17,750 nucleotides of DNA from a virus, in UHGV virus genome UHGV-0162636. One strand, given 5' to 3'. Of the stretch, positions 50-15,887 are shown one piece after another (the stretch's first letter is position 1; each line of letters starts with the position of its first letter). The notes beneath the pieces are model-generated. The model was not told the DNA's origin. It ran no database searches and saw only the letters and a list, made by a program, of their open reading frames with translations. A program made the translations under genes and the position numbers.

Positions 50-1300
50 TTGCTTACCGATACCAAACTGAAAAATCTGAAGCCGCAGGAGAAACTGTAT
101 AAGGTTTCCGACCGTGACGGGCTGTATGTCGCCGTGCTCACGTCAGGATCTGTCTCGTTCCGCTACGACTACCGCATTAACGGCCGCCGGGAAACGCTGG
201 TGATCGGTCAGTACGGTCGTGACGGTATCAGCCTGGCGGAAGCGCGCGAGGAACTTATTGCCGCCAAAAAGTTGCTGAAGTCAGGCCAGTCGCCTGCTGC
301 GGCAAAACGTGACGGTATCAGGCAGATTTCCAGCGCAGAAACATTCGCGGTATATACCGACGCCTACATGAAATATGTCACCCTGGCCGACAGCACCCGA
401 TCCATGAAGCAGGCGGTTATTGAGCGTGATATCCTCCCGGTGCTCGGAAACAAGATGATGACTGAGATAACCACCAGGGTGGTGCGCGACCTGTGCGATC
501 GTATCGTCGAGCGTGGCGGCCGGGCGAGGGCGATTCAGGTCAGGGAGATAATCAGCAGTGTGTACCGGTATGCCAACGACCGCGGGCACGGCCTGTTCAA
601 TCCGGCTGCCGACATTAAGCCATCATCCATCGCTATGTTTAAGCCGCGCGAGCGCACACTGTCGCCAGAGGAGATCGGCATTTTCTTCCGCGCGCTGGAC
701 GACATCGGAGCGATGGGCACAATGAAGATGGCTCTCAAGCTGGTACTGCTGACGCTGGTGCGAAAAAGCGAATTCACTTACGCGACCTGGGCAGAGATCG
801 ATTTCAAGAAATGGACATGGACGATCCCCGCTGACAGGATGAAGGCCGGGCGTGCGCATGTGATTTACCTGCCGAAGCAGGCGCAGGATCTGCTGGTGGG
901 GTTGCAGATGTGTGCTGGCGGCAGTGAATACCTGGTGCCCGGGCGCTACAACTTCCGTAAGCCGTTATCGAACGCGGCGCTGAACTCGCTGGTAAACCGT
1001 ACCGTGGAGGCCATAAACAGAGACGGCGAGAAGATACAGGACTTCACGGTGCACGACCTGCGCCGTACGGCAAGCACGCTGCTGCATGAAGCTGATTATC
1101 CATCAGACTGGATCGAGAAGGCACAGGCACATGAGCAGAAGGGCGTACGCGCGGTTTACAACAAAGCGGAGTATGCCCGGCAGCGAGCCTATATGTTGCA
1201 GCAGTGGGCAGATATGGTTGATTCCTGGATTAATGGGGAGCACACCGATCTGGTACCGTTCTCCCCGTCGAAGTTTGAGAGGTGGATGGAAAGTCAGTAG
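50..1300 (+). CDS. int: Phage tyrosine integrase (P4-type, with N-terminal arm-binding DUF4102-like region); likely TTG start at 50
   Basis: 416-aa ORF. N-terminal LTDTKLKNLKP...DRDGLYVAV...SFRYDYR is typical of P4-family integrases; C-terminal HDLRRTASTLLHE...Y catalytic region matches the tyrosine recombinase fold. In-frame TGA just upstream limits the start to TTG at 50. Confidence 0.9.
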   Translation: MLTDTKLKNLKPQEKLYKVSDRDGLYVAVLTSGSVSFRYDYRINGRRETLVIGQYGRDGISLAEAREELIAAKKLLKSGQSPAAAKRDGIRQISSAETFAVYTDAYMKYVTLADSTRSMKQAVIERDILPVLGNKMMTEITTRVVRDLCDRIVERGGRARAIQVREIISSVYRYANDRGHGLFNPAADIKPSSIAMFKPRERTLSPEEIGIFFRALDDIGAMGTMKMALKLVLLTLVRKSEFTYATWAEIDFKKWTWTIPADRMKAGRAHVIYLPKQAQDLLVGLQMCAGGSEYLVPGRYNFRKPLSNAALNSLVNRTVEAINRDGEKIQDFTVHDLRRTASTLLHEADYPSDWIEKAQAHEQKGVRAVYNKAEYARQRAYMLQQWADMVDSWINGEHTDLVPFSPSKFERWMESQ

Positions 1301-1335
1301 CCGAATTAAATGGCTATTTAAATCTCGCTGATGAA

Positions 1336-2834: not shown

Positions 2835-3716
2835 TTACATTGGGACTTCGTTCAGCTCATCTCGGCGGATGGTGTACACGTCAGTGGCTTTAGCCAGTCG
2901 GTCATCGTCGTTAGAGAGCTTGCTGGCAACGTATTTGTATGCCTTGTCCAGATCTTTCAGCGTGTTGTAGTTCATCGCTGCATCAGTGAAGGCGCACAGA
3001 ATTTCTTCTGGATCGCGGTCGTCGCTGCTCTTCGGCTTCTCCTCCTGGTGCTGCTCAGACTTGGAGTTGATCAGTTTGTTCATGCCGGACGCGGTAGCGG
3101 GTGTCGGCGTGATATCGCGCTCAACGCGCGGTGCCGTTTCCTGCAATTCGTCAGGGGTGTACACGCCAAGCAGGACGTCAGGGGAATGCAGGCGAGCCCA
3201 ACGCTTAACGCAAAGGTATGCGAGCTGCTGTCGAGGATCCTGCTCCCATAGAGGGGAGTTCCGAACACCGGCCTGGGCCATGCTGATCGTCAGCTCGCGC
3301 GGCTCTGATTCTCCTTTGAGGGTTGCCCATACGGTAACGGTCAGGTTCGGCGATTTGTCGGATTTCCCGTTTACTTTCGACCAGTCACCATCCCAGCGAT
3401 AATTCAGGCGGGTGGCCAGCAGATTGGAGGAGGACACAACCGCGTTTACCAGCTGCGCTTCATAACCAAGCGTGCCGTTAACCACATGTGTTTTCTGCGC
3501 CACAGCGAACGGGTTCATGCCCCACTGCGCCGCCTGCATGGTCACAGCCAGGCAGTCAGCAGGCTTTCCTGCCAGGTGCGCAGGAACGGTGGCCTTACTG
3601 TCAGCCATCAGGGTTGCGAAACGCACCAGGCGGTCCATGCCCTCAGGGCTGAAGATTGCCGCAGCGGTGCCAACGGTTGCGCCAGGCTGCGATGTGATTG
3701 CGATGTCGTTGCTCAT
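2835..3716 (-). CDS. recT: RecT/Bet-family single-strand annealing recombinase
   Basis: 293-aa ORF. MQAAQWGMNPFA and VERDITPTP segments parallel ANQYGLNPW and ERDITP in lambda Bet as I recall it. Start ATG overlaps the exonuclease stop (ATGA), implying translational coupling. Confidence 0.85.
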   Translation of the reverse strand: MSNDIAITSQPGATVGTAAAIFSPEGMDRLVRFATLMADSKATVPAHLAGKPADCLAVTMQAAQWGMNPFAVAQKTHVVNGTLGYEAQLVNAVVSSSNLLATRLNYRWDGDWSKVNGKSDKSPNLTVTVWATLKGESEPRELTISMAQAGVRNSPLWEQDPRQQLAYLCVKRWARLHSPDVLLGVYTPDELQETAPRVERDITPTPATASGMNKLINSKSEQHQEEKPKSSDDRDPEEILCAFTDAAMNYNTLKDLDKAYKYVASKLSNDDDRLAKATDVYTIRRDELNEVPM

Positions 3717-4534
3717 ACGTACTTATCCTGTTTGCGTGCCCACTCGGGGCGTTTGATAATTTCAAATCCACCCCATTCGCCAGACTCACGGCACTGGTGG
3801 TAGGTATTCAGATCCCGGCGGAACAGTGCATGCCCGGCGTCAACGTCCTGTGCATCCAGTTCGAAAACGCGCACCGGGTAGCGGCCGCAGTCGATGGTTT
3901 CGCTCACTGCCAGGAAAAAGAATCCGTGCGGCTCACCGGTGGTCTGCTGCGCGCCTTCGCGGTACATGGCGTCCTGAACGTGGTACCGGAATTCCTCGAT
4001 GTGGCGGGAGAACCGCTCCATGTCCGCAACCTTCTTTACGTCCAGCAGAACCGGATGATTCTTCAGGCGCTTATCCGGGCGAATGCGGCACAGCTCTCCG
4101 GTTTCCGAATCCGTCCAGTAGTGCGACGCTTCGCAGAAACCTTCCGCCTCAAGAAGCCAGCGCGCCGCCGGATGGGCCATCGCGCTGTCACGCATAAGAT
4201 TCAGCTTGCGGCCCTGTTCGGCATCCATAACCGTCATGCCCATGTTCTCGACATCTTTCAGGAACGCTGCTTCATCCTCTTTTCCGGCTGCTGTGCGGCG
4301 GTTGAACTGCGGCGCCACGATGAAACGCTTATCGAACTCTTCCGGCTCCAGCAGCAGGCAGTGCAGGGCGGTGCCCATATCCAGCGCTTTCAGCTTTTCG
4401 GTGTCGACCGGCGCTGATTTCTGCCATTGCAGCAGGGCCGGGCTCAACGCAACCATATCCAGCTGCGACTTACTCACGCCGTCTCCGGAGTGGTAATCCT
4501 CGTTGCTGATGTCGAAGTAAATTCCTGGCTTCAT
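3713..4534 (-). CDS. PD-(D/E)XK exonuclease (RecE/exonuclease VIII-like partner of RecT)
   Basis: 273-aa ORF beginning MKPGIYFDISNEDYHSGDGVSKSQL; contains RPD...LLDVKK consistent with a PD-(D/E)XK nuclease motif. Sits directly upstream of and coupled to recT. Confidence 0.8.
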   Translation of the reverse strand: MKPGIYFDISNEDYHSGDGVSKSQLDMVALSPALLQWQKSAPVDTEKLKALDMGTALHCLLLEPEEFDKRFIVAPQFNRRTAAGKEDEAAFLKDVENMGMTVMDAEQGRKLNLMRDSAMAHPAARWLLEAEGFCEASHYWTDSETGELCRIRPDKRLKNHPVLLDVKKVADMERFSRHIEEFRYHVQDAMYREGAQQTTGEPHGFFFLAVSETIDCGRYPVRVFELDAQDVDAGHALFRRDLNTYHQCRESGEWGGFEIIKRPEWARKQDKYV

Positions 4535-4830
4535 GCCGCGTTCCTCGCCGTGTCCAACTGGTCAGCCAGATCCCACTTCGCGATGATGCTGGTCAGCGCG
4601 CTCTGGAATGCAGCGAGAGTTTCTTCAAATTCCGGATTCATCATTAGCTCTTCCAGAATCTCCTTGCGCACGCCTTTGCGCTCCAGCGCATAGAAAGGTT
4701 CCTGCAGCTGGTGATGCTTAATGGCGTCGATCAGCTCTACCTGGCGCTCGTAGTGCAACTGGCTCAGCTGGTAGTCGCTGTCGATGCTGGTCATGATGCT
4801 TTTTAGGTTATTGATCTGCTGGATGTTCAC
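4531..4830 (-). CDS. Hypothetical early protein (99 aa, GTG start)
   Basis: ORF with GGGGGTGAG upstream of the GTG start; stop overlaps the exonuclease start (ATGA). Acidic, helical-looking sequence with no recognisable motif. Its position in a recombination module is compatible with a host-nuclease inhibitor or Kil-type function, but that is speculative. Confidence 0.6.
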   Translation of the reverse strand: MNIQQINNLKSIMTSIDSDYQLSQLHYERQVELIDAIKHHQLQEPFYALERKGVRKEILEELMMNPEFEETLAAFQSALTSIIAKWDLADQLDTARNAA

Positions 4831-4976
4831 TTGCTCACCCCCATATCCATTTCAGTTTTGACTGCCATCTTGGTGACAAACGCCCAGTTGATGGCCTCAT
4901 GCAGAGTGCGGCACTTAGTGCTCATCAGCCCGCACGCCGTAACGCAGTACCAACCGTTGATGATTTTCCACTGCAT
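4827..4976 (-). CDS. Small hypothetical protein (49 aa), first gene of the early-left operon; not in the ORF track
   Basis: Hand translation: MQWKIINGWYCVTACGLMSTKCRTLHEAINWAFVTKMAVKTEMDMGVSK. GAGGT lies 8-9 nt upstream of the ATG at 4976; the TGA stop overlaps the GTG start of the next gene. Confidence 0.35.
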   Translation of the reverse strand: MQWKIINGWYCVTACGLMSTKCRTLHEAINWAFVTKMAVKTEMDMGVSK

Positions 4977-4982
4977 AATTCG

Positions 4983-5008
4983 TTACCTCAGTGTTACCGT
5001 TGAGGTAA
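4983..5008. promoter_or_regulatory. Inverted repeat TTACCTCA-N10-TGAGGTAA overlapping a candidate leftward early promoter (operator-like)
   Basis: 8-bp arms at 4983-4990 and 5001-5008 share the TTACC/GGTAA half-site with the window-wide palindrome. A minus-strand TTGACT (-35, 5031-5036) and weak -10 lie just upstream in transcript terms. Confidence 0.45.
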
Positions 5009-5055
5009 TAATTATCCTTATGTGGTTTGAAGTCAATAGGTATGATTATAAAAAA

Positions 5056-5070
5056 TTACCTGTAAGGTAA
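5056..5070. promoter_or_regulatory. 15-bp palindrome TTACCTGTAAGGTAA (candidate operator, copy A)
   Basis: Perfect TTACCT-N3-AGGTAA. Located between the repressor-gene terminator and the leftward promoter. Confidence 0.55.
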
Positions 5071-5080
5071 CGCTTCTGGC

Positions 5081-5107
5081 AATAAAAAAGCCGCTCAATG
5101 GCGGCTT
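5081..5107 (-). terminator. Rho-independent terminator downstream of the repressor gene
   Basis: On the minus strand: 7-bp GC-rich stem (5088-5094 pairing with 5101-5107), 6-nt loop, followed by a TTTTATT run. Confidence 0.5.
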
Positions 5108-5127
5108 AGTATCTGAAATATATGGTT

Positions 5128-5718
5128 TTAATCTTGCGCTTTACCGTTCTGAACAATCACAAAATCGACGTAGCTCTCAATCTTGCTTTTCTCGCTCTCA
5201 GGTAACAATGCGTAGCGGGCCCGGTCGTAATGGATGGTCGCCGGGTCGCGGGGATGGATGAGCAACTCATAGCCGCGGCGCCCGAACGCGCCAGCGATCG
5301 CCTCCAGGGTGGAGATAGAAACGCTAACCTCATTGTTCAGCATGCGCTGGATTGTCGCCTGGGCAACGCCGGACGCTTTAGACACCTTTCCCTGAGACGA
5401 CAGGTCGCGGTTATTCTGCATCCACGCTTCGAGATTATGCGCCGCCAGCTGGCCGATATCGGAAGGGGTGATCTCCTCCTGCGGTATGGCAACAGCAGAT
5501 AATGAGTGGTCTACGTCCAGCCAGTTCGACGGCTTGTTCGCCGCCTTCTCAATCTTGCGCGCCACCGTGTCGCCGATAACCTTCTGCCCGCGGGCCCAGC
5601 GGTTCACCAGGTTGGCCTGAGTTCCCAGTTTTTCCGCCAGACGAGTCTGCACCCCGTTAAAGTCACGGTCGATGATATCGTTAATATTCTGCCTGCGGAT
5701 ATCCTGAATACTTTTCAT
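5128..5718 (-). CDS. Prophage repressor (CI-like) with two tandem XRE-type HTH domains and no LexA-like S24 peptidase domain
   Basis: 196-aa ORF. HTH-like segments GVQTRLAEKLGTQANLVNRWARGQ and KASGVAQATIQRMLNNEVSVSISTLEAIAGAF. No Ala-Gly/Ser-Lys autocleavage domain visible. Divergent from the Cro-like gene. Confidence 0.8.
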   Translation of the reverse strand: MKSIQDIRRQNINDIIDRDFNGVQTRLAEKLGTQANLVNRWARGQKVIGDTVARKIEKAANKPSNWLDVDHSLSAVAIPQEEITPSDIGQLAAHNLEAWMQNNRDLSSQGKVSKASGVAQATIQRMLNNEVSVSISTLEAIAGAFGRRGYELLIHPRDPATIHYDRARYALLPESEKSKIESYVDFVIVQNGKAQD

Positions 5719-5773
5719 GCTCTGGTGATTCGCCTCATATATGAATTAGTTAGTGGTTCAATTAAAAGCGAAT

Positions 5774-5788
5774 TTACCTCACAGGTAA
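5774..5788. promoter_or_regulatory. 15-bp palindrome TTACCTCACAGGTAA (candidate operator, copy B1) in the repressor/cro intergenic region
   Basis: Perfect TTACCT-N3-AGGTAA in the divergent promoter region; an additional GGTAA half-site follows at 5801-5805. Confidence 0.6.
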
Positions 5789-5821
5789 ATGCACCCGACA
5801 GGTAACAAACCTTGATTATTA

Positions 5822-5837
5822 TTACCTTCTGGGTGAA
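5822..5837. promoter_or_regulatory. Degenerate operator-like site TTACCTTCTGGGTGAA inside a candidate rightward promoter
   Basis: Lies between a TTGATT -35-like hexamer (5812-5817) and a weak -10 upstream of the Cro-like gene. One arm deviates (GGTGA instead of GGTAA). Confidence 0.4.
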
Positions 5838-5872
5838 TATTTGTTATCTGAAATTAATATCAGGCAATAGCT

Positions 5873-6103
5873 ATGAGCGAGAACGAAAAATTCGACTTCA
5901 AAAAACACTGGTTGCAACTCACTCCTGATGAGCGAAATGCCTTTGCTGACGAGGCAGGAACTACCAGCCATTACATCCAGACGCATCTGACAGGTCGCCG
6001 GAAAATGCCAGGTAAGACATTGATGAATGGGCTGTTTAAGGCATGCAAACAGCGCGGATGGGTCAGAACAAAGCCGGAACTGGCCATCTTCTTCTACGAA
6101 TAA
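5873..6103 (+). CDS. Cro-like small HTH regulator (YdaS/Cro family)
   Basis: 76-aa ORF divergent from the repressor; HTH-like LTPDERNAFADEAGTTSHYIQTHLTGRRKMPGKTL. Confidence 0.7.
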   Translation: MSENEKFDFKKHWLQLTPDERNAFADEAGTTSHYIQTHLTGRRKMPGKTLMNGLFKACKQRGWVRTKPELAIFFYE

Positions 6104-6124
6104 AACCTCCCTCTAAACCCCATC

Positions 6125-6147
6125 AGGCCGCCTTCTGGCGGTCTTTT
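6125..6147 (+). terminator. Hairpin plus short T-run after the Cro-like gene (tR1-like position)
   Basis: AGGCCGCC-ttct-GGCGGTC followed by TTTT. Short T tract, so probably a weak or conditional terminator. Confidence 0.4.
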
Positions 6148-6252
6148 CATATCTATTCAGTTCTCTCAGGTAATAATGATCCGAATATGGTTGATCTTTT
6201 TTCGGCCATCGCACAAAATTACCGTAATAGTAAACGTCAATGAGGTTGCGTA

Positions 6253-6462
6253 ATGGAGATTATCACTCGTCTGGACGCTGCAAAGGCAGGTCTTAAGCGT
6301 TATTACACCGGTAAAAAGTGCAAACACGGTCATGACAGTGAGCGTTACGTCTATAACGGCCATTGCGTTGAGTGCGCCATCAACTCAAGTCTGCGCCGCC
6401 AGGCGGAGATTAAACGGATTATGGATGAAGCTGCGAAAGGCAACGTGCCGGAGGTGATCTGA
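6253..6462 (+). CDS. Small zinc-ribbon-like protein in the cII position
   Basis: 69-aa ORF with CKHGH...NGHCVEC (four Cys/His ligand candidates). GAGG Shine-Dalgarno upstream; stop overlaps the start of the O-like gene. Confidence 0.55.
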   Translation: MEIITRLDAAKAGLKRYYTGKKCKHGHDSERYVYNGHCVECAINSSLRRQAEIKRIMDEAAKGNVPEVI

Positions 6463-7232
6463 TGGCCAGCAGCTGGATTAAGGTCGAGGTGATCACCCCT
6501 GATAAGCCTGAAATATTTCAGATAGCCGAGCTACTGAATATCGACCCGGATGCCGTTCTCGGGAAGCTGGTTCGCATCTGGGCATGGGCCGATCAGCAGA
6601 CAATAGACGGTAACGCTGGCAGCGTTACAAAGGGAGTACTGGACAGACTCGCTTTTATTACCGGATTCGCTGATGCATTGATCGCTGTTGGCTGGCTCGC
6701 ATATGTCGACGAAAAGCTGGTACTGCCTAACTTTGAGCGTCACAACGGTGAATCATCGAAAAAACGGGCACTTACAAACAGAAGAGTCGCAGAACACCGC
6801 AAACGTGAAACGCAAAATGTAACGCGAGCAGCGTTACAAAAAGAGTTACCAGAGGAAGAGGAAGATATAAATAAAACCCCTCTCTCTGCGCGCGAAGGAA
6901 TTCAAATCCCTCCCGTTGTCGTTCCAGGTATCGGGGAACCGATCGGCAAATTCACCATGCATGAAAACTGGCAGCCGTCAGATGACTTCGTCATGCGCGC
7001 CAGGATGTGGGGTCATGCACTTCCTGCAGACGGGTACAAGAAATCAGACCTGATTGAATTCATCACCTACTGGATGGCGGAAGGCAATGTGATGCAACAC
7101 GTGCAGTGGGAGCAGAAGTTTGCCCGGCTGCTGATGAACAGGAGAAAAAGAGCGGCAGGAAAGCGCGGTGACAGCTCTGACGATGACGTACCACACTGGA
7201 ACAGCCCTGAGGGCTGGAAGGATTTCTTATGA
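6462..7232 (+). CDS. Phage replication initiation protein (O-like, possibly with DnaT-like C-terminal domain)
   Basis: 256-aa ORF immediately upstream of and coupled to the P homolog. Contains an internal acidic linker (PEEEEDI) and two dyad-symmetric repeats in its coding sequence. Domain assignment is by position and weak recall. Confidence 0.6.
   Translation: MASSWIKVEVITPDKPEIFQIAELLNIDPDAVLGKLVRIWAWADQQTIDGNAGSVTKGVLDRLAFITGFADALIAVGWLAYVDEKLVLPNFERHNGESSKKRALTNRRVAEHRKRETQNVTRAALQKELPEEEEDINKTPLSAREGIQIPPVVVPGIGEPIGKFTMHENWQPSDDFVMRARMWGHALPADGYKKSDLIEFITYWMAEGNVMQHVQWEQKFARLLMNRRKRAAGKRGDSSDDDVPHWNSPEGWKDFL
6610..6628. repeat. Dyad-symmetric repeat GTAACGCTGGCAGCGTTAC (copy 1), candidate iteron or protein-binding site
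   Basis: 7-bp inverted arms GTAACGC/GCGTTAC around a 5-bp spacer, followed by AAAGGGAG. Repeated 209 bp downstream with 23/27 identity. Confidence 0.5.
6819..6837. repeat. Dyad-symmetric repeat GTAACGCGAGCAGCGTTAC (copy 2)
   Basis: Same arms as copy 1; followed by AAAAAGAG and an A/G-rich stretch. Confidence 0.5.
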
Positions 7233-8014
7233 ATAACGTATTCGCAGCAATTCAGAATCGTGATGCTGGTGCCATGGCTCGCATGATGGGCCCGGACAAT
7301 CACCATGATCAGCAGGACAACGTTGTTAACATCAGCGCAGAGCGTCTCGTCGATGCCCTGTTTAAACAGCTTAAGCAACTCTTTCCTGCAGCTGAGCAGA
7401 CCAACCTGAAGACCGCGCAGCAGGAAACCGACGCGAAGCGCCAGTGGATAGCCGCATTCGCTGAAGGTGGGATCCGTACCCGCGAGCAGGTATCGGCAGG
7501 TATGCGTCATGCCCGCGCCAGTGAATCACCGTTCTGGCCTTCGCCCGGGCAGTTCATCAAGTGGTGCAAGGACAGCAAAATGGTGCTTGGCGTGAGCATC
7601 GAGGACGTGATGGGGGAGTTTCACCGTTACGCCAAAGAGAAAAGCTTACAGCCCGGAGGACCTGAGAGATTCCCGTGGCGCCACCCGGTCATGTACTGGA
7701 TTGTATGCGATACCCGCCGTGCGATGTACCAGCGCCAGCTGAGTGAGGTGGAAGTTGAGAGGCATGCGCGCAAACTGCTTGAGGAATGGGCTACGAAAGT
7801 GGCGGCCGGTCACCAGATTCCGGATCCGGTTCTCAGCATCCAGGCGAAGCCAGAGCCGATACAAACACCGGATGACACAGGGGGGAGTGCTTACCACCCT
7901 CCCGGAAAAAGCTTCGGATGCATGCCGAATTCCGCCACCCTTGGAGGGCTGACACCGGCCCAGTGGTTGATGGAGGAATACCGGCGAGGGAAGGCAGCGG
8001 GACTCATCAGGTAG
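7229..8014 (+). CDS. P: Replication protein P homolog (DnaB helicase loader, lambda P family)
   Basis: 261-aa ORF. LFPAAEQTN...KRQWIAAFAEGGIRTREQVSAGMRHARASESPFWPSPGQFIKWCKD aligns by eye with lambda P (FPASLANRDQ...RRQWVLAFRENGITTMEQVNAGMRVARRQNRPFLPSPGQFVAWCRE), recalled from memory. Confidence 0.85.
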   Translation: MNNVFAAIQNRDAGAMARMMGPDNHHDQQDNVVNISAERLVDALFKQLKQLFPAAEQTNLKTAQQETDAKRQWIAAFAEGGIRTREQVSAGMRHARASESPFWPSPGQFIKWCKDSKMVLGVSIEDVMGEFHRYAKEKSLQPGGPERFPWRHPVMYWIVCDTRRAMYQRQLSEVEVERHARKLLEEWATKVAAGHQIPDPVLSIQAKPEPIQTPDDTGGSAYHPPGKSFGCMPNSATLGGLTPAQWLMEEYRRGKAAGLIR

Positions 8015-8051
8015 CACCAGCGCGGCAGCGCATTTTTTTACGCCTGTATAA

Positions 8052-8066
8052 TTACCTTGCTGGTAA
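8052..8066. promoter_or_regulatory. Variant palindrome TTACC-TTGCT-GGTAA (copy C1)
   Basis: Same 5-bp half-sites at the same centre-to-centre spacing as the perfect copies, but the inner base pair differs. Confidence 0.4.
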
Positions 8067-8113
8067 CAAAATATGCGCATAGCTATTTATTTTAACTCTA
8101 ATGTGGATTTAAA

Positions 8114-8128
8114 TTACCTGAGAGGTAA
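8114..8128. promoter_or_regulatory. 15-bp palindrome TTACCTGAGAGGTAA (copy C2) overlapping the ribosome-binding site of the 8132 gene
   Basis: Perfect TTACCT-N3-AGGTAA ending 3 nt before the ATG at 8132; the GAGGT inside it is the likely Shine-Dalgarno. Confidence 0.55.
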
Positions 8129-8131
8129 GCC

Positions 8132-8923
8132 ATGACAGCAATATTAGGGATTGACCCGGGATGCAGCGGGGCGCTGGTTCTCGTAACTGAGCAGGGCGGA
8201 TACATCGACCATCTGGCAATGCCAACCATCAAGGTCGGCACAAAGTCCAGGGTGAACGGCGCAGCGGTAGCTGCATGGGTTCGGCAGTACGGAATCACTC
8301 ATGCGTACCTAGAGCAGGTCGGAGCCATGCCAGGACAGGGAACGGCAAGCATGTTCACGTTCGGGCATGCAGCTGGCGTACCGGCGCTTAAATTCCTCGC
8401 TTCATACATAGCAGGCACGACATTGGCTGGGATGTTTGCAAACCAGATGAACAGCCTATTGACCGGCAATGACCCACTGGATATGACAAAGCCAACTACA
8501 TGGGTGCAGGCTCTGCTGAAGGGCGGCTCATTCGGTATCTACGGCGATTTCCTTTTCCAGGACCATACGCAATATGGATCCAGTATCGCGGCCACCATCG
8601 GGGGGCCGGTGCTGAGCTTCGCCGAGCAGTTAACCAAACTTCTGATCACGAACCCGCAGAAGGCATTGCAGGGCGAAGAAACTTCTTTCGGTGCCGATGC
8701 GCTGAAGACGGCGCGCATGATCACCCCATTCGCCAACCTCTGGTACGCGAAAGCCATTACCAACCACCTGATACTCCAGCAACTTCAGGAGATGGCTAAC
8801 CCAGGGTATAACGACAGGGTGCGTGACAGAGCGCAGCGTGAATTCAACACGACGAGCTGGTGGGAGCCTGGCGAGACAACGCCTCGCCGCGCACCAGACC
8901 TCGGGAAGGCAGTGGGGCAATAA
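8132..8923 (+). CDS. Chimeric ORF: RuvC-like Holliday-junction resolvase N-terminus (about 85 aa) fused to an unrelated C-terminal segment, possibly a virion or DNA-injection protein fragment
   Basis: N-terminus MTAILGIDPGCSGALVLV matches the RuvC-type ILGIDPG motif. After about residue 85 the sequence no longer resembles a resolvase. A complete resolvase would be about 160 aa. Confidence 0.5.
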   Translation: MTAILGIDPGCSGALVLVTEQGGYIDHLAMPTIKVGTKSRVNGAAVAAWVRQYGITHAYLEQVGAMPGQGTASMFTFGHAAGVPALKFLASYIAGTTLAGMFANQMNSLLTGNDPLDMTKPTTWVQALLKGGSFGIYGDFLFQDHTQYGSSIAATIGGPVLSFAEQLTKLLITNPQKALQGEETSFGADALKTARMITPFANLWYAKAITNHLILQQLQEMANPGYNDRVRDRAQREFNTTSWWEPGETTPRRAPDLGKAVGQ

Positions 8924-9114
8924 TGGATATATTGATCAAGATAGGCATGATTCTGTTCTGGTTTGCGTTCTTCGTGGTATGCGGCACGGCGTATGTTTGG
9001 GCGGTAATATTCGCTATCAGAAAAGGTTGGCTTGGCGAGACCTCTGCGAAGGTCGTTTACTTCGCGACCTTCGTCATTCTCGCGGCTATAGTGTTTAAGC
9101 TACCATTACTGTGA
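8923..9114 (+). CDS. Small hydrophobic membrane protein (63 aa, two predicted TM segments)
   Basis: Internal ATG at 8923 overlaps the TAA of the upstream ORF. Sequence MDILIKIGMILFWFAFFVVCGTAYVWAVIFAIRKGWLGE...FATFVILAAIVFKL is strongly hydrophobic. Confidence 0.5.
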   Translation: MDILIKIGMILFWFAFFVVCGTAYVWAVIFAIRKGWLGETSAKVVYFATFVILAAIVFKLPLL

Positions 9115-9123
9115 CATGTCACA

Positions 9124-9146
9124 AGGCCGCTATGCGGCCTTTTTTT
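9124..9146 (+). terminator. Rho-independent terminator (probably works for both convergent genes)
   Basis: AGGCCGC-tat-GCGGCCT stem-loop followed by TTTTTT. The T-run overlaps the stop codon of the minus-strand gene. Confidence 0.6.
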
Positions 9147-9405
9147 AAGTCGTTTCCTGCTTCAGTTTTTCCACACAGTAATCGAGATGCATCTGCAGAT
9201 CCTTCATGGACATCTGCGAGCTGGTGACGTAGTTCACCAAGGCAGTTAGTTCCGCCATCGGGCCATCAACGTTAAATCCGTCCTCATTCAGTTGTCGCAG
9301 CAACGTCATCAGATGTGATTCTTCTACAAGGGAGCGGACGCCTCCCGGCGTGTGTATGCGTTCGGCAAATCCTTTTTCCAGCGGGTGATGATACTGACGT
9401 TGCAT
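9145..9405 (-). CDS. Small SOS-regulated protein (86 aa), candidate antirepressor or moron of unknown function
   Basis: ATG at 9405 with GGAGAA Shine-Dalgarno; the track's TTG start at 9423 is less likely. A near-consensus LexA box lies 20-39 bp upstream. No motif recognised in the protein. Confidence 0.55.
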   Translation of the reverse strand: MQRQYHHPLEKGFAERIHTPGGVRSLVEESHLMTLLRQLNEDGFNVDGPMAELTALVNYVTSSQMSMKDLQMHLDYCVEKLKQETT

Positions 9406-9424
9406 CTCATGTTCTCCATGCAAT

Positions 9425-9444
9425 TACTGTATGTATGTACAGTA
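9425..9444. promoter_or_regulatory. LexA (SOS) box TACTGTATGTATGTACAGTA
   Basis: CTGT-N8-ACAG with an AT-rich spacer, matching the enterobacterial SOS-box consensus TACTGTATATATATACAGTA at 18 of 20 positions. Immediately upstream of the 9145..9405 gene. Confidence 0.65.
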
Positions 9445-9481
9445 GCAAAACTTTGAAACACTATCCAGCACGATATGAGCT

Positions 9482-9496
9482 TTACCTGAAAGGTAA
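9482..9496. promoter_or_regulatory. 15-bp palindrome TTACCTGAAAGGTAA (copy D) between the SOS-regulated gene and the tailspike gene
   Basis: Perfect TTACCT-N3-AGGTAA; a further AGGTAATAA half-site at 9541-9549. A TATAAG -10-like hexamer lies about 30 bp downstream on the plus strand. Confidence 0.55.
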
Positions 9497-9600
9497 TAAC
9501 TTTCATGATTGTTATTCATTCAATTCATATAAGGTTTGCTAGGTAATAAACTGTCCAGATGATGCATGCGCGCCGGGCGCTGCTTTATTGGAGACAGGCC

Positions 9601-12351
9601 ATGACGGTATCAACCGTAGTTGACCATAACGATTACACCGGGAACGGCGTTACGACATCATTCCCTTACACCTTCCGAATTTTCAAGAAAGCAGACCTTA
9701 CCGTTTCAGTGATTGACCTGAGCGAAAACATCACGGTACTGGTGCTGGATACTGACTACACCGTGACGAACGCTGGTGGCTTTAACGGCGGAAGTGTTGT
9801 TCTTACCTCGCCGCTGGCGAACGGTTGGCAAATATCGATTGCCCGCGAGCTGGAGGCAACGCAGGAAACAGACCTGCGCAATCAGGGTAAGTTTTTCGCT
9901 GAGGTGCATGAAGATGCATTCGATAAACTGACGATGCTGATTCAGCAGGTGGGCAGTTTGTTCAGCCTGGCATTGCGTAAACCGTCGTTTGTGGCAAATT
10001 ATTACGATGCCATGAGTAACTATATTAGAAATCTGCGAGATCCGGTAAGGCCACAGGATGCAGCAACTAAAAATTATGCTGATTCATTAAGCGAAGGAAA
10101 TACTTCACATACAGATTTGTTATTCAGCAGAACGCTTCGTACGGAAGAAAGCATCCCACAATTACCATCTATTGAGTTACGAAAAAATAAAATTGTTGGT
10201 ATGGATTCATCTGGTAATCCGATTATGCTTCTTCCGGAAAGCGGAAGCGCAGCGGATGTCCTCATTGAATTAGCAAGCACTGATGATGGGAAGGGGGATT
10301 CCTTAATTGGCGTAAAACAGCCTTATGCTGGAGCGGTAGGGCGTACGCAGCATGATTTTAACGCGCAGTTTATCAGTATTAAAGACTTCTTAGGCGATGA
10401 ATATTCCGGCGCAACGGACGCCTCACCGGCATTCTCTACCGCAAACGCCCTAGTGCCAAAGGGCAAGCAAATTCTCGTTCCTGCTGGAAACTACATGCTC
10501 AATACCGAAGTGGACTGCTACGGCCGCCACTTCATTTTTGAAGAGCCAGTAACGATAACAGGAACCGGATATCTTCGCCGTGCTGTTGTTCAGCGTATTG
10601 ATGGTGGTTCCGGGGCTGTAAGTATTGGAACTGAAGGCGTTCGCGGTTCGGATGGGCACCCGCAATTTGGTGTTAACTTCAGGTTTGGGAGCAATGCTGG
10701 CAATGTATCCGGTCTACAGGTTGGTGGCGGAAACCCAATTAATGGAACTTATGGTAATGTTTTCTTTCCGGATGGCTATTCGTCATGGACTTCAGTACAA
10801 CCAAGTAAATACCCAAGCCCGACAGAGATCGCAGTCCAGCCAGCTTCTCGCGCGGGTAAATGCACAACTGTTGCCGGAACTAATATCGTAAATGTAAATA
10901 CAGGACCAGGCTTAACGGTTGATGAAATTGGAAAAACAATATGGATCAGGGATGCTGGGTATACGGTGGTATCAGTGGCATCAGGATCATTTACAGTGAA
11001 AAACATCGATAACAGCGCGGTGTCATTTCCGTCATCAATATCTGCAACCTATGTATGCTGTTACATTTGGGGGCAGGGTAAATGCAATGTATCGGGGAAG
11101 AAAATTATTCGTATATCTGGCGACCCATTTATTCCGCTCAACAATATACAAACTACGTTCGTAGTGAATGGCATTACGACTGTACAGGCATCATATTCTG
11201 ATTCTTGGTTAGCCACACTTACCGCGGATGTAGGTATTGCTGATAATGTCGACTATTATTGGTGGGGTAGTGTAGATAACTTAGTTACTGCATTGCGTAT
11301 GCATCGTGTTACCGGAGCTGGATTTGAAGAAAATATTTCTCTTATTGCTTCTGCTCGGGGATTTTATCACCTACACGCAGCTGGTGGTAACGGTGACCAG
11401 TATCCAGTATTTATTGGTAGTGGGTGGGATCCGGACGGCAATGCACGACGACAGATCACTGTTGATGGTGTAAATGGCATAGTCACTATAGGGGGGGCAT
11501 ACGGGCGAGCATGTGCAGAGTTCGGTTATCGCACATACTCTTCTGGAGACGTGAATAGATTTCGTTTTGATAGTGCCACTACTGGTGATCAACCTGCTTT
11601 TAGCGCTGTCGGCCCTGATGCGAATATAAATACTATTCTGGCCGCGAAAGGTAATGGGTTTATTCAAATAAATAATGAACTACATTTTAATGCCGCTATT
11701 TACCCGCATGTAGATAATATGTTTACCGTTGGTAAATCTGGAAATCGCCCTTCATCTATTTGGGCTGCAAATGGAACAATTCAAACATCTGATGGAACTT
11801 TAAAAACTGATGTGGCTGAAAGCAACTTATCGATAGAGTTTATTAAAGGGCTGCATCCGGTATCATATCGTTTCATCAGTGGGGGGAATGTTGTTGAAGA
11901 AATTGATGACGGATTTGAATATATAGAACGGCAGGTCACTGAGATTATCCATAGTACAGAAGAGATTAACGAGCGAATTAATGTTGATGGTGTAATCAAA
12001 TTTGTAAGAAAATATGTTACAAAAGAAGTTGAGCACCCGGTATTTGATACTGTTAACGTTGAAGACGAAAACGGTAGTTTCCTTGAGACGGTCAGCATTC
12101 CTCGCATGGAAACTGTAAGGGTACCAAAGAAAAAAACGGTTATCACTTCGGTTGCCGGTAAGCGTACCCATTACGGCTTTATCGCTCAGGAAGTTAAAGC
12201 CCTACTTGATCAACTCGGCACTGGCGACTTTGGTGGATATGTAGAGGGTGAAGATGGGGAGATTGGTTTACGTTATGAACAATTCATAGCACCAATTGTA
12301 TCAGCGATGCAAGATGTAATAAAAAGAATTGAAAAATTGGAAGGCAATTAA
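9601..12351 (+). CDS. Tailspike/tail fibre protein: conserved N-terminal anchor, central beta-helix depolymerase-like domain, C-terminal intramolecular chaperone (peptidase S74-like) domain
   Basis: ATG at 9601 with GGAGACAGG Shine-Dalgarno (the track's start at 9559 is less likely). N-terminus TVSTVVDHNDYTGNGVTTSFPYTF...DAATKNYADS is tail-fibre-anchor-like. Centre has DDGKGDSLIGVKQP...FISIKDFLGDEYSGATDASPAF, resembling pectate-lyase-fold tailspikes. C-terminus SDGTLKTDV...HYGFIAQEVKALL...IEKLEG is typical of auto-cleaving chaperone domains. Confidence 0.8.
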   Translation: MTVSTVVDHNDYTGNGVTTSFPYTFRIFKKADLTVSVIDLSENITVLVLDTDYTVTNAGGFNGGSVVLTSPLANGWQISIARELEATQETDLRNQGKFFAEVHEDAFDKLTMLIQQVGSLFSLALRKPSFVANYYDAMSNYIRNLRDPVRPQDAATKNYADSLSEGNTSHTDLLFSRTLRTEESIPQLPSIELRKNKIVGMDSSGNPIMLLPESGSAADVLIELASTDDGKGDSLIGVKQPYAGAVGRTQHDFNAQFISIKDFLGDEYSGATDASPAFSTANALVPKGKQILVPAGNYMLNTEVDCYGRHFIFEEPVTITGTGYLRRAVVQRIDGGSGAVSIGTEGVRGSDGHPQFGVNFRFGSNAGNVSGLQVGGGNPINGTYGNVFFPDGYSSWTSVQPSKYPSPTEIAVQPASRAGKCTTVAGTNIVNVNTGPGLTVDEIGKTIWIRDAGYTVVSVASGSFTVKNIDNSAVSFPSSISATYVCCYIWGQGKCNVSGKKIIRISGDPFIPLNNIQTTFVVNGITTVQASYSDSWLATLTADVGIADNVDYYWWGSVDNLVTALRMHRVTGAGFEENISLIASARGFYHLHAAGGNGDQYPVFIGSGWDPDGNARRQITVDGVNGIVTIGGAYGRACAEFGYRTYSSGDVNRFRFDSATTGDQPAFSAVGPDANINTILAAKGNGFIQINNELHFNAAIYPHVDNMFTVGKSGNRPSSIWAANGTIQTSDGTLKTDVAESNLSIEFIKGLHPVSYRFISGGNVVEEIDDGFEYIERQVTEIIHSTEEINERINVDGVIKFVRKYVTKEVEHPVFDTVNVEDENGSFLETVSIPRMETVRVPKKKTVITSVAGKRTHYGFIAQEVKALLDQLGTGDFGGYVEGEDGEIGLRYEQFIAPIVSAMQDVIKRIEKLEGN

Positions 12352-12358
12352 GTAGATT

Positions 12359-12391
12359 GGTGGGGCTTACGCCCCACCTTTTTATTTTTTT
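12359..12391 (+). terminator. Rho-independent terminator after the tailspike gene
   Basis: GGTGGGGC-ttac-GCCCCACC stem-loop followed by TTTTTATTTTTTT. Confidence 0.7.
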
Positions 12392-13500
12392 AATTCTGAT
12401 AATTGTTTTTCGATTTTTGAAACTCTTTCATCAAGTTTTAGTAGGTCATTTAATTTCTTGCCATTAATGTAAACATCCCCATTAATGTAAACGCCGCCAT
12501 CGTTGTCGACTGCAAGAACTTCTTTAGTATTATCATTTGAGACTATACGAGTTCCACCTTCGCCGTTTCTTATTGAAATCCAGTTGCGCTTATCTTCTGA
12601 ACCGTTCCAGCGAGTGCCTCCATATATTTCTCCCGACTTTCCTTCATTCAAGATAATACCGGTACCAACACCTTCTGTGCGTGCCTGCATTATCCCTTCG
12701 CGGAATAGAGATCGCCTAAAGTCAAAACCCATCTTGGCTTTATCAAAATCAGCAACAATGAGCCTGCCATAATCAGCTATAGAATTCTTGAAGTAAATCC
12801 CACTTTCCCAGACACCGCGACGCTTCTCTGCTGGTACATCTTTATCTGTATCTTCGCTTCGCACTTCTACGGCCATGGAGTTTGGATTTCCAAAGCCAAC
12901 TATCTGTAAGCCCACTTTGGACTTATTGGGGAATACTCCGGGCTTGCCGCCATTAAGGACATCAATCTCAACCCCTACGAGTTGGTTATCATAGTCTTCT
13001 GGATTGAATGTGAAATCTGAACCAGCCGGTGCCAGATCATGATATTTCCCATCCTTTGTAAAGGCCTTGAAATATGAACGAGCGCTAAAGAATGCCCCCC
13101 ACGCCTTTGAGTCTTTAGCAATGGCAGCAGAATCACCCCAGATGGAGACAGCGTTGGTGTTTGGTTTAAAATTCCATACTTCACTCAGGAAGTTTTGATA
13201 GTGATTGTGAACGCTATCATAATTATCGGCATTCTGATTTGTTAAATCATGGGCTTTTACTGGCTCACCTTTCCAGTTGTAGAACTGTGAATTAGGTTCA
13301 ATGACATCAGTGAGAATTTCATGACCGCGCAGGGCTGTATCAAGACCTTCGTATTGAGTCCAAATGCCATTTGCTCTTGGGTGATTACCTCTTACAGTAA
13401 CCTCATTTAATTTTTCATTGCCATTATCATCTTGTGAATATCCCGGCCCTGATATAAAAAGGCAACTTAATCCAAAAACAAAAAAAGAATTAACTTTCAT
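12382..13500 (-). CDS. Secreted protein of unknown function with Sec-type signal peptide (AT-rich cargo gene)
   Basis: 372-aa ORF. N-terminus MKVNSFFVFGLSCLFISGPGYSQ has the n/h/c-region architecture of a signal peptide. C-terminus has GGVYINGDVYINGKKL and a coiled-coil-like tail. GAGGAA Shine-Dalgarno. GC content well below the flanking phage genes. Confidence 0.7.
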   Translation of the reverse strand: MKVNSFFVFGLSCLFISGPGYSQDDNGNEKLNEVTVRGNHPRANGIWTQYEGLDTALRGHEILTDVIEPNSQFYNWKGEPVKAHDLTNQNADNYDSVHNHYQNFLSEVWNFKPNTNAVSIWGDSAAIAKDSKAWGAFFSARSYFKAFTKDGKYHDLAPAGSDFTFNPEDYDNQLVGVEIDVLNGGKPGVFPNKSKVGLQIVGFGNPNSMAVEVRSEDTDKDVPAEKRRGVWESGIYFKNSIADYGRLIVADFDKAKMGFDFRRSLFREGIMQARTEGVGTGIILNEGKSGEIYGGTRWNGSEDKRNWISIRNGEGGTRIVSNDNTKEVLAVDNDGGVYINGDVYINGKKLNDLLKLDERVSKIEKQLSELKK

Positions 13501-13501
13501 C

Positions 13502-13741
13502 TTACAAATTCCTCACTATTATTACATTTACATTTTGTAGCAGGATGGTATGTTGCCAAATTTTTTGGTTGTTATAATTATCATCACATCTTTCAGTGTC
13601 TGAAATAAAACATTCGTGTTCGTTTTTATATTTATTCCACGCTTTTTGCTCCATTTGATTATCGATTGCGGAAAGAGCAAGAACTGCAAACAGCGCTATT
13701 GCAAAAGAGAGGGATATGTATTTGATAATTTTGCCAATCAT
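13502..13741 (-). CDS. Small membrane-anchored or secreted Cys-containing protein (79 aa), co-oriented with the secreted protein
   Basis: Hydrophobic segment ISLSFAIALFAVLALSAI followed by a polar region with three Cys (ECFISDTERC). No clear Shine-Dalgarno; AT-rich. Confidence 0.35.
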   Translation of the reverse strand: MIGKIIKYISLSFAIALFAVLALSAIDNQMEQKAWNKYKNEHECFISDTERCDDNYNNQKIWQHTILLQNVNVIIVRNL

Positions 13742-13952
13742 GATGGTTTTCTTTTGATATCACCAGGTGGCACGATTCTGCCATGACAAATGACAAAAAA
13801 CCAGTTGGTAGCTTACACCACTGGCATGTCTGATTGTGATTATGAAGCTGCTGTATTTTTACTGATGGTAACAATTAACCACATATGGTTTATTGTGTAT
13901 GATGGACTCACCAACTAAGGGGGTTCTATATGCACAATAAACGGTGGTCACT

Positions 13953-14357
13953 ATGTCAACCACGCTGACAACAGAGTCACTCAATCAGGGGTTTAGCCTT
14001 GGTGCGCTGGCTTCCGTCGTCGCCGGGGTTCCTCCTGAGGTGGCTTTAGGGGCGCTCGCTGGCGCGGTAATTTTTGTTACCTCAGCAGTTGAGTATCCTA
14101 TAAAGCGCCGGCTTCTCCTGGCGCTTCTCAGCTTCCTCTGCGGTGTTCTCTTCTATAAAGCGACAGCTTCCATTCTGATTGGCTTTGCCAGCCTGATACC
14201 GACGATTACGCAGGACTCTTTTGAGAAGGGCATTGTGTATTCAGCCGGGGCATTCGTGTCGGCAATCGTCGCTGTTCGCATTGGCATCTGGCTGTATCAC
14301 CGTTCTGAAAATCCGCGCGACCTGATTCCGGGGAGAAAAGACGATGACCAGTCCTGA
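13953..14357 (+). CDS. Putative holin (multi-TM small membrane protein)
   Basis: About 134 aa from the ATG at 13953 (GGTGG Shine-Dalgarno-like run upstream; the track's GTG at 13944 is the alternative). At least three hydrophobic segments and a charged C-terminus (PGRKDDDQS). First gene of the lysis cassette. Confidence 0.6.
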   Translation: MSTTLTTESLNQGFSLGALASVVAGVPPEVALGALAGAVIFVTSAVEYPIKRRLLLALLSFLCGVLFYKATASILIGFASLIPTITQDSFEKGIVYSAGAFVSAIVAVRIGIWLYHRSENPRDLIPGRKDDDQS

Positions 14358-14637
14358 GCTGCTTCTCATCCTTAACGCCGCTATCTGCGGCGGCATTGCA
14401 ATCCGAGTGCTTCTGTTCCGTCGTGACGGGTCACGCCATCGCTGGTGGGGGGGATGGCTCGCCTACCTGTTGATCGTCGTGGCCGCCAGCGTACCTATCC
14501 GGACGTTTTACGGGTACTACGTCAGCGCCGACTGGTCAGAAGTCATCATTAAAGCCGTGTTCCTGGCTGCGCTCATCAAGACAAAAGGGAATGTGGTACA
14601 AATTTTCAAGATAACGAGGTCCCAGCATGGACATTAA
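14344..14637 (+). CDS. Second small lysis-cassette membrane protein (holin, antiholin or LysA-like)
   Basis: 97-aa ORF with hydrophobic segments (LLILNAAICGGIAIRVLL; WLAYLLIVVAASV). GGGGAGAAA Shine-Dalgarno. Overlaps both neighbours by a few codons. Confidence 0.55.
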   Translation: MTSPELLLILNAAICGGIAIRVLLFRRDGSRHRWWGGWLAYLLIVVAASVPIRTFYGYYVSADWSEVIIKAVFLAALIKTKGNVVQIFKITRSQHGH

Positions 14638-15256
14638 CCAATTCCGCCGCGCCGCCGGTATCAGTGAGGTGCTGGCCACGCGCTGGTATCTGCATATCAC
14701 CGCGGCAATGAAAGAGTTTGGCATCGAACAACCGCTGCACCAGGCGATGTTTATCGCGCAGGTCGGGCATGAGTCTACCGGCTTTACCCGGCTGCAGGAA
14801 AACTTCAACTACAGCGTAGCAGGGCTGGCAGGTTTCGTCCGTACCGGGCGCCTAACTCAGGGTCAGGCTAACGCGCTGGGCCGTCGTGCTGGTGAACCAT
14901 CGTTACCGCTGGAGCGCCAGCGTGCGATCGCCAACCTGGTGTACAGCAAAAGAATGGGGAACAACGGTCCGACTGACGGCTGGTTTTACCTCGGGCGCGG
15001 GCTTATCCAGATCACCGGGCTGAACAACTATCGCGACTGCGGCAATGGCCTGAAGGTGGATCTGGTTAAGCAGCCTGAGCTGCTGGCGCAGGACGAATAC
15101 GCGGCCCGCAGCGCGGCGTGGTTCTTCGCAACCAAAGGCTGCATGAAGTACACCGGCGACCTGGTGCGCGTCACGCAGATCATCAATGGTGGGCAGAACG
15201 GCATCGACGACCGGCGTGCGCGGTATATCACTGCCAGTAAGGTGCTGGCGGTATGA
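14627..15256 (+). CDS. Endolysin, glycoside hydrolase family 19-like (chitinase-fold lysozyme)
   Basis: 209-aa ORF with AMFIAQVGHESTGF and YLGRGLIQITGLNNY, recalled as GH19 endolysin hallmarks. No N-terminal TM or SAR segment. GAGGT Shine-Dalgarno. Confidence 0.85.
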   Translation: MDINQFRRAAGISEVLATRWYLHITAAMKEFGIEQPLHQAMFIAQVGHESTGFTRLQENFNYSVAGLAGFVRTGRLTQGQANALGRRAGEPSLPLERQRAIANLVYSKRMGNNGPTDGWFYLGRGLIQITGLNNYRDCGNGLKVDLVKQPELLAQDEYAARSAAWFFATKGCMKYTGDLVRVTQIINGGQNGIDDRRARYITASKVLAV

Positions 15257-15735
15257 TCTGGGCATTCGTCAAAGCGTACTGGAAACAGTTGCTTATCGTG
15301 GCGATGCTTGCTGCTCTGGTAATCGGCGGCAGGGTTGCCTGGAATGTACACGGCAGCCACCAGTACGATGCCGGGTATGCGCAGGCAAAGGCAGATCAGA
15401 AACAGGCTGATGATAAAGCTCGTCAGCATGACGAACAGGAAAAAGCGACCAATGAACGTGAAGCGCAGCAGAGGATCGACCAGGCGCGCAATGATGCTCT
15501 TGATGCTGCCGCTCGCGCTGGCCGGTTGCAGCAACAGCTCGTTGCCATCCGTGAGCAGCTCAGGCAGTATAACGCCACTATCGGCACTGGGGCGTCAGCC
15601 GCAGACACCGGAGTTTTGCTTGCCGACGTGCTCAGCAAATCTCTCGAGCGAAACCGACAACTGGCAGAGTACGCTGACCGGGCCGCCGAAGCCGGACGAG
15701 TCTGTGAAAAGCAGTACGATTCGCTGACACGGTGA
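15253..15735 (+). CDS. Rz: i-spanin (Rz-like): N-terminal TM segment plus periplasmic coiled coil
   Basis: 160-aa ORF; LLIVAMLAALVIGG TM segment, then a Q/A/R/E-rich helical region. Start overlaps the endolysin stop (ATGA). Confidence 0.8.
   Translation: MIWAFVKAYWKQLLIVAMLAALVIGGRVAWNVHGSHQYDAGYAQAKADQKQADDKARQHDEQEKATNEREAQQRIDQARNDALDAAARAGRLQQQLVAIREQLRQYNATIGTGASAADTGVLLADVLSKSLERNRQLAEYADRAAEAGRVCEKQYDSLTR
15452..15727 (+). CDS. Rz1: o-spanin (Rz1-like lipoprotein) embedded in the +1 frame of the Rz gene
   Basis: Alternative-frame ORF with signal peptide and lipobox (MNVKRSRGSTRRAMMLLMLPLALAGC), followed by a Pro/Ser-rich mature region. Lies entirely within Rz. A start at ATG 15491 is also possible. 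Confidence 0.7.
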   Translation: MNVKRSRGSTRRAMMLLMLPLALAGCSNSSLPSVSSSGSITPLSALGRQPQTPEFCLPTCSANLSSETDNWQSTLTGPPKPDESVKSSTIR

Positions 15736-15887
15736 CATGGCATTTTTCATGGCACTGATTTCCGGTGACGGTATATAAAACGGTACGGTGAAAATCAGAT
15801 TGCATAAAATTGTTACCAGTCAATTGGTTATGTGTGTCGTAAATAATTGAGTGGGAATGATTTTAATCCCTGCACTATGAATGAACA

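Follow-up and report, generated by a model that had tools for sequence, protein, structure and literature searches.

The defective prophages Rac, DLP12, e14, and Qin of E. coli K-12 are internally deleted and have kept an integrase, a RecET-type module, a repressor, and lysis genes. Internal deletions of prophages generally leave the two ends in place and lose the central block. Among phages that can be compared with the locus described here, SPC32H carries a Rep-Ant antirepression switch, reportedly described by Kim and Ryu in J Virol in 2013 (cited in PMC7380047). In the epsilon15-type phages (Uetakevirus), a tailspike gene, a minus-strand conversion slot, the lysis cassette, and att make up the normal layout (PMC10408124), and gp17 belongs to the virion proteins that make up the tail-hub/ejection cluster (PMC12391199). 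For the E. coli Uetakevirus vB_EcoP_ZX5, whose published attP/attB core is identical to the one found in this work, the integration site is the guaA 3′ end (PMC9782041).

Judged from gene content and attachment sites, the element in the window (the whole 17,750-bp stretch of DNA that was analysed) is a Uetakevirus prophage of the epsilon15/phiV10/SPC32H type in E. coli. The window is E. coli chromosome, with guaA just outside it, before the integrase gene, and with yfgI, yfgH, and yfgG from position 15955. The DNA and protein matches of the element are to epsilon15, BUCT554, and Tyrion. Its 16-bp attachment core is found a second time 157 bp ahead of the window, at the stop codon of guaA, where it forms attL, as seen in a 180-kb ENA contig (locus L004). 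Integration at the guaA 3′ end with the core attgagtgggaatgat is shared with epsilon15, phiV10, vB_EcoP_ZX5, and a prophage of E. coli strain EP91B. The gene order is also that of the epsilon15-type relatives, leading from an early-left region (int, methyltransferase, PerC-like gene, xis, RecT/exonuclease) through Rep and the replication genes to gp18, ant, the tailspike anchor, the conversion slot, and the lysis cassette. The Uetakevirus synteny of gp17, gp18, ant on the minus strand, tailspike, conversion slot, holins, endolysin, Rz/Rz1, att, and int is thus present in the window, and of the complete morphogenesis module that a viable phage possesses, terminase through gp16 are missing. Its bounding att sites, and its colinearity with an intact relative outside a deletion that took away essential genes, give the element the make-up of a defective (cryptic) prophage. 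The module of ant and tailspike anchor occurs in 24 of 5,426 complete E. coli genomes.

An earlier note on this DNA had regarded the order of tailspike and lysis genes as non-canonical and had counted the lack of Q and N antiterminators among the effects of a deletion. Neither point is supported by the comparison: the same order is found on the epsilon15 and EP91B maps and does not speak for a rearrangement, and the intact EP91B prophage and epsilon15 have no Q or N gene annotated either. The modules listed there as retained, on the other hand, are all found, namely RecET-like recombination, a repressor, a LexA box with its gene, a tailspike, and a complete lysis cassette, and 23 of the 23 retained genes are intact. 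The main features outside the deletion junction are the following.

50..1300, plus strand: tyrosine integrase
1336-1983, minus strand: MT-A70 DNA methyltransferase, early-left operon
2131-2427, minus strand: PerC-family transcriptional activator homologue, early-left operon
2835..4534, minus strand: RecT recombinase and PD-(D/E)XK nuclease (exonuclease VIII-like)
5128..5718, minus strand: SPC32H-type repressor Rep, 196 aa (PDB 5D50 chain A, E 3e-48)
6462..8014, plus strand: replication genes, DnaT-like initiator and lambda P-like helicase loader
8923..9114, plus strand: gp18-like small ORF, 63 aa, its start overlapping the gp17 stop codon
9145..9405, minus strand: SPC32H-type antirepressor Ant, 86 aa (PDB 5D50 chain E, E 9e-44)
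9601..12351, plus strand: tailspike, 916 aa, with Uetakevirus-type N-terminal anchor and C-terminal Peptidase_S74 chaperone, identical to the EP91B protein
12382-13500 and 13502-13741, minus strand: two cargo genes, 372 aa and 79 aa, in the lysogenic-conversion slot
13953..15735, plus strand: lysis cassette of Phage_holin_8, Phage_holin_3_7, GH19 endolysin, Rz-like DUF2514, and an embedded Rz1-like lipoprotein
15452-15727, plus strand: Rz1-like o-spanin ORF in the +1 frame with an LAGC lipobox (MMLLMLPLALAGC), inside the Rz gene at 15253-15735
15846..15861, no strand: attR core ATTGAGTGGGAATGAT, a 16-bp direct repeat

Between the replication genes and gp18 lies a hybrid open reading frame. With high confidence, we regard it as the scar of a single 22,678-bp deletion that arose by illegitimate recombination in a Uetakevirus prophage. 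Its parts are as follows.

8132..8923, plus strand: chimeric ORF, ruvC'-'gp17, 263 aa, open over 263 codons (NCBI HAJ3016815.1, E. coli, "hypothetical protein")
8132..8380, plus strand: ruvC 5′ fragment, codons 1-83 of 154 (RuvC-type Holliday junction resolvase)
8378..8384, no strand: deletion junction at codon 83, the GTA at 8378-8380 being exact in both parental sites
8378..8923, plus strand: gp17-like 3′ fragment, codons 738-918 of 918 (virion structural protein)

The evidence for this reading comes from E. coli EP91B (NZ_CP149810.1), which harbours, at the same guaA/yfgI site, an intact prophage almost identical to the element (about 1,210,090-1,248,780; locus L003), and nothing speaks against the deletion itself. 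Window positions 1-8384 correspond to L003 2245-10628 with 99.92% DNA identity, and positions 8378-17750 correspond to L003 33300-42670 with 99.76% identity; these two colinear blocks share 7 bp, and the window lacks 22,678 bp of L003. The left parent is a gene for a 154-aa RuvC protein (L003 10376-10840), cut after 246 nt or 82 codons, and the right parent is a gene for a 918-aa gp17-like protein (L003 31089-33845), cut after 2211 nt or 737 codons. Each half of the hybrid is 100% identical to its own EP91B gene, and the two genes stand 22.7 kb apart. The earlier note had proposed an in-frame fusion across a large deletion, to be checked by aligning each half separately against intact prophages and by comparing the locus across strains. 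Both comparisons bear the proposal out, the first yielding the parental genes and a breakpoint at GTA 8378-8380, and the second an intact version at the same site in EP91B.

The profiles of the two halves agree with this origin. In a PHROG scan, the first 83 residues align with positions 3-80 of the 158 in the profile of phrog_1770, a Holliday junction resolvase family (E 1e-16), and residues 77-261 match the C-terminal end of the virion structural protein family phrog_684 (profile positions 659-840 of 840, E 5e-82). This split, with the break at codon 83, corresponds well to the claimed succession of about 85 resolvase-like and about 175 unrelated residues. Both parental proteins match their respective families end to end; the 154-aa RuvC parent covers positions 3-148 of phrog_1770, as compared with only 3-80 for the hybrid. 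The Pfam RuvC model (PF02075) gives the hybrid ORF 18 bits, under its gathering cut-off of 22.2 bits, and the threshold for the family is therefore not reached. The gp17 part, consisting of the last 181 residues, has 98.9% amino acid identity to epsilon15 gp17. A full-length phrog_684 protein has ~820-920 aa and is encoded in the morphogenesis operon, behind gp15 and gp16; here only the last 181 residues remain, and gp13 to gp16 are absent. A PDB sequence search gave nothing significant for the hybrid protein or for the full gp17-like parent, and the residues that follow the junction (85-103) have a mean Kyte-Doolittle value of 1.27, which is too weak for a membrane helix.

Of the carboxylates of the resolvase, D8 (in GIDPG) and E61 (in YLEQ) are left in the hybrid, and the C-terminal 71-72 residues are gone. 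The catalytic set is incomplete, the acidic residue in IADALL having been deleted; in the parent, this residue aligns with the alanine-substituted position in the MOC1 variant structure 6lct. Because about half of the fold and the C-terminal catalytic carboxylate are missing, the hybrid protein is predicted to be without resolvase activity. A virion role is likewise not expected, as the gp17 fragment has no obvious role absent the other virion proteins. We infer that the hybrid ORF is a by-product and not a selected gene. Its good ribosome-binding site and its open frame, which had a chance of only about 1 in 3, count against a protein without function.

Measured from att to att, the intact prophage spans ~38.7 kb and the remnant ~16.0 kb. 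The EP91B prophage carries genes for terminase, portal, protease, capsid, decoration, tail tube, and internal virion proteins. Some 30 genes were deleted, comprising accessory early genes, a putative regulator, both terminase subunits, portal, protease, capsid, decoration, tail tube, and the internal virion/ejection genes. The absence of terminase, portal, capsid, and tail-tube genes, which had been noticed from the window alone, is explained in this way, since all of them lie inside the 22,678 bp that are missing relative to L003. Compared with the epsilon15-type relatives, the window lacks this block, goes straight from codon 83 of ruvC to codon 738 of gp17, and contains no gene for a head, portal, terminase, tail-tube, or ejection protein. 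The deleted block also encodes a UmuD-like protein and, just before the terminase genes, a phrog_536 "transcriptional regulator" (epsilon15 gp49-like). The region of the small terminase gene, where the pac sites of such phages usually lie, is inside the deletion as well. The element is incapable of DNA packaging and of particle assembly.

Between the terminase and portal genes of the intact prophage, in a part deleted from the window (L003 16771-16885), we observed a pseudogenic tRNA-Gly and a small minus-strand ORF. At this position, epsilon15 has gp50 and regulatory sites.

A three-way alignment of the junction shows the 7-mer GTAGCGG in the left parent and GTACCGG in the right parent and the window, with 6 of 7 positions equal. 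Beyond GTA, the same alignment revealed no extended flanking similarity at the junction, and no IS, inverted repeat, or att-like sequence. Since GTA is a valine codon at the break in both parents, the fusion is in frame. The deletion bears the signature of illegitimate, microhomology-level joining. A 3-bp ambiguity is estimated to be expected by chance in ~5% of cases, which makes it modest evidence for microhomology-guided over random end joining, and an in-frame outcome is expected by chance in about 1 in 3.

The course of events is, with high confidence, the following. Illegitimate recombination deleted 22,678 bp from a prophage residing at the guaA 3′ end. The left break fell in codon 83 of ruvC in the early-right operon, and the right break in codon 738 of the gp17-like gene, with which the series of large morphogenesis genes ends in its operon. 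Joining took place at the GTA microhomology, where the frames happened to match, and the resulting hybrid ORF took its start codon from ruvC and its stop codon from gp17. A phage of ~38.7 kb thereby became a defective prophage of ~16.0 kb, unable to make virions. It is highly unlikely that a mobile element or site-specific recombination made the deletion instead. Two sibling remnants discussed below do have IS elements in the prophage, one of them, in 2017.15.02CC, with an IS1 at the deletion junction itself, but in the window the parental sequences abut directly at GTA, without an IS, an inverted repeat, or an att-like sequence.

The hybrid could also be imagined to be a natural two-domain protein of intact phages, a reading that would be expected to leave full-length homologues. 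A search of a collection of ~5.8 billion proteins gave 1,477 matches to the hybrid. Among the matches listed, none spans both halves and the maximum query coverage is 75%, with 154-aa RuvC proteins covering ~32% of the query and gp17 C-terminal fragments covering 38-75%. The hybrid's own cluster in this collection is represented by a fragment. A tblastn search against 50,697 phage records likewise found no two-domain homologue. Some of its rows against phiV10-type phages reach 85% query coverage, which at face value speaks for a two-domain protein, but they lie wholly inside gp17 genes; we rejected them as two-domain homologues, as their alignment over residues 29-82 is a chance extension. When the N-terminal 82 residues are used alone, the E value is 1.1 for phiV10 gp17 and 13 for the gp17-like protein of EP91B. 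Full-length homologues in intact phages, which the earlier note had named as the result that would contradict a fusion, were thus found neither among the matches listed from the 5.8 billion proteins nor in the phage records. With its halves residing in two separate EP91B genes and no listed protein match exceeding 75% coverage, the hybrid is extremely improbable as a natural two-domain protein.

The same holds for the suspicion that the junction is an artefact of assembly or a chimeric contig, to which we assign a negligible probability. Nothing specific speaks for it beyond absences: the 41-mer spanning the junction was found in 0 GTDB species-representative genomes and 0 JGI metagenomes, and the junction in 0 of 5,426 complete E. 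coli genomes. However, at least 24 contigs of NCBI, ENA, and Logan, with lengths of up to 235 kb, encode the exact 263-aa protein; the 180-kb ENA contig (L004) has 100% identity to the window across all 17,750 bp; and a repeat of 3-7 bp cannot mislead an assembler. The junction is thus real, but it is rare and may be limited to a single clone, so that the persistence of its carriers says little either way.

The deletion is also young. Over the ~15.8 kb of retained prophage (window 1-15860), the remnant differs from the EP91B prophage by 8 substitutions (0.05%), which indicates that the deletion is very recent. The chromosomal flank yfgI-yfgH-yfgG (15864-17750, 1.9 kb) shows 21 differences from EP91B, or ~1.1%. 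This disparity between prophage and flank indicates that the same phage recently entered different E. coli backgrounds. Polarised with three other copies, 3 SNPs are specific to the window lineage, and all of them are nonsynonymous (integrase, exonuclease, holin). The intactness of the remaining ORFs accordingly reflects youth and carries no signal of selection.

Other strains allow this remnant to be placed in a wider context. Z226-5/-6, 2017.15.02CC, and PSS-07 contain the same or a related Uetakevirus prophage at guaA from which the morphogenesis region has been lost. In Z226-5/-6, the deletion reaches from codon 74 of P to just downstream of gp18; in 2017.15.02CC, 27 kb flanked by IS1 are missing, into the tailspike gene; and in PSS-07, whose prophage is a related one, the deletion runs from a 69-aa ORF into ant. 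The breakpoints of these strains differ from that of the window, and the ruvC'-'gp17 fusion is found in none of them. The endpoints of the Z226-5 deletion (window 7450 and 9131) bracket the window junction, and the differing chromosomal flanks suggest that Z226-5 and the window carriers belong to separate host lineages. That these strains show three further deletions at one guaA site suggests that the morphogenesis block has been lost repeatedly in this phage group.

Z226-5/-6 additionally carry a 1.9-kb insertion (ISEc53 and a ClbS/DfsB family gene) in the region of the LexA box and the ant promoter (L001 9256/11142). Its 8-bp target duplication (window 9431-9438) lies inside the LexA box, and the insertion would uncouple ant from its SOS-controlled promoter.

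The earlier note had further described the element as a domesticated remnant. In this reading, the remnant, possibly including the hybrid ORF, is a selected module, either as an SOS-inducible device for tailspike/lysis release or as an immunity/serotype-conversion island kept by the host. All 23 kept genes are intact, with the Rep/Ant/LexA switch, tailspike, cargo, and lysis genes preserved; Rep, the conversion-slot genes, and the lysis cassette have likewise survived in the three other deletion variants, as has the full tailspike gene in Z226-5/-6 and PSS-07. However, 8 substitutions from an intact phage leave no time for decay, and the three that are specific to the lineage are all nonsynonymous. 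The kept modules are located at the prophage ends, where any internal deletion would spare them, the candidate late regulator phrog_536 has been deleted, and the junction is as rare as 0 in 5,426 complete genomes. Domestication is thus unsupported, and we consider it very unlikely.

A variant of this reading combines youth with function, in that a young remnant would be kept for an SOS-induced or donor function, with the hybrid protein interfering with incoming relatives. We see only a very slight chance of this. If it were true, Ant-triggered derepression would free an O-antigen-specific tailspike through the intact lysis cassette or, alternatively, the element would serve superinfecting Uetakeviruses as a RecET-equipped donor of tailspike and conversion genes, and the 181 highly conserved gp17 C-terminal residues of the hybrid might hinder incoming relatives.

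Our preferred reading, a recent deletion scar, leaves the question of when the hybrid ORF would be expressed. The regulatory sites that bear on it are listed below.

8052-8066 and 8114-8128, no strand: two Rep-operator-like palindromes in the P-ruvC intergenic region, where a repressor site is annotated in epsilon15
9123..9141, plus strand: GC-rich hairpin with T-run, intrinsic-terminator-like, between gp18 and the convergent ant; epsilon15 has a terminator at the same position
9427..9442, no strand: LexA box CTGTATGTATGTACAG, perfect CTGT-N8-ACAG, just upstream of ant
9482..9496, no strand: Rep-operator-like palindrome between ant and the tailspike gene

The gene whose control by LexA had been claimed does have a perfect LexA box, and this gene, downstream of the box, encodes the antirepressor Ant. 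The arrangement resembles the SPC32H Rep-Ant switch in its close Rep and Ant homologues and in the presence of a LexA box and a Rep operator upstream of ant. Nothing notable differs between the two, except that here a switch that appears intact governs a defective element. Palindromes of the Rep-operator-like form TTACC-N5-GGTAA occur 9 times in the window as against 0.33 expected. Besides those listed, they are located on the PL side (4994, 5056), in the rep-cro region (5774, 5822), and upstream of the 69-aa ORF (6219), and their positions match the annotated repressor sites of epsilon15; a further one at 3323, inside recT, is probably due to chance.

The hybrid ORF has kept the good ribosome-binding site of ruvC, which is embedded in a Rep operator-like palindrome, the one at 8114-8128 overlapping its Shine-Dalgarno sequence. 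A sigma-70 consensus scan of 7900-9650 detected no promoter-like site, and expression control is consequently read from the operator-like palindromes only. Because of the Rep operator-like sites on its upstream region, the hybrid ORF is predicted to be silent in the lysogen. Upon SOS induction, release of LexA would allow Ant to be made, Ant would inactivate Rep, and the hybrid ORF would be transcribed with the PR operon. With int, O and P, an AlpA-like xis gene, and both att sites present, derepression, excision, and replication of the element are probably still possible.

Some further observations concern the retained genes. PerC-like prophage proteins can affect host virulence regulons, and a PerC-family homologue stands in the early-left operon. 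In relatives, the conversion slot holds O-antigen polymerase, acyltransferase, or GtrABC genes. Here, the slot encodes a 372-aa protein with a signal-peptide-like N-terminus and a coiled-coil-like C-terminus and a 79-aa protein with a hydrophobic N-terminal segment. The 372-aa protein falls into no Pfam, PHROG, or NCBIfam family, has no tblastn match in the 50,697 phage records, and shows no similarity to epsilon15 gp21; its single-sequence AlphaFold2 model has a pLDDT of 36 and is unusable. This cassette may be a new conversion or exclusion cargo. The embedded Rz1-like ORF completes the lysis cassette and is unannotated in the RefSeq relatives listed.

In summary, we have traced a hybrid ORF to a single deletion in a Uetakevirus prophage. 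The case is ordinary prophage decay with a textbook deletion scar and presents no new kind of protein or system, and its significance beyond annotation is small. For annotation, "hypothetical proteins" of the HAJ3016815.1 type would be better labelled as a ruvC'-'gp17 fusion pseudogene, and the locus as a defective Uetakevirus prophage and not as a source of virions. Like Rac, DLP12, e14, and Qin, the element is internally deleted and retains the same types of modules. Unlike them, it is much younger, nearly identical to a living phage, and derived from another phage genus, and its deletion junction survives as an open hybrid ORF. With an intact EP91B sibling that has 99.9% DNA identity over the kept 15.8 kb available for comparison, its value lies in offering a datable first step of prophage decay.
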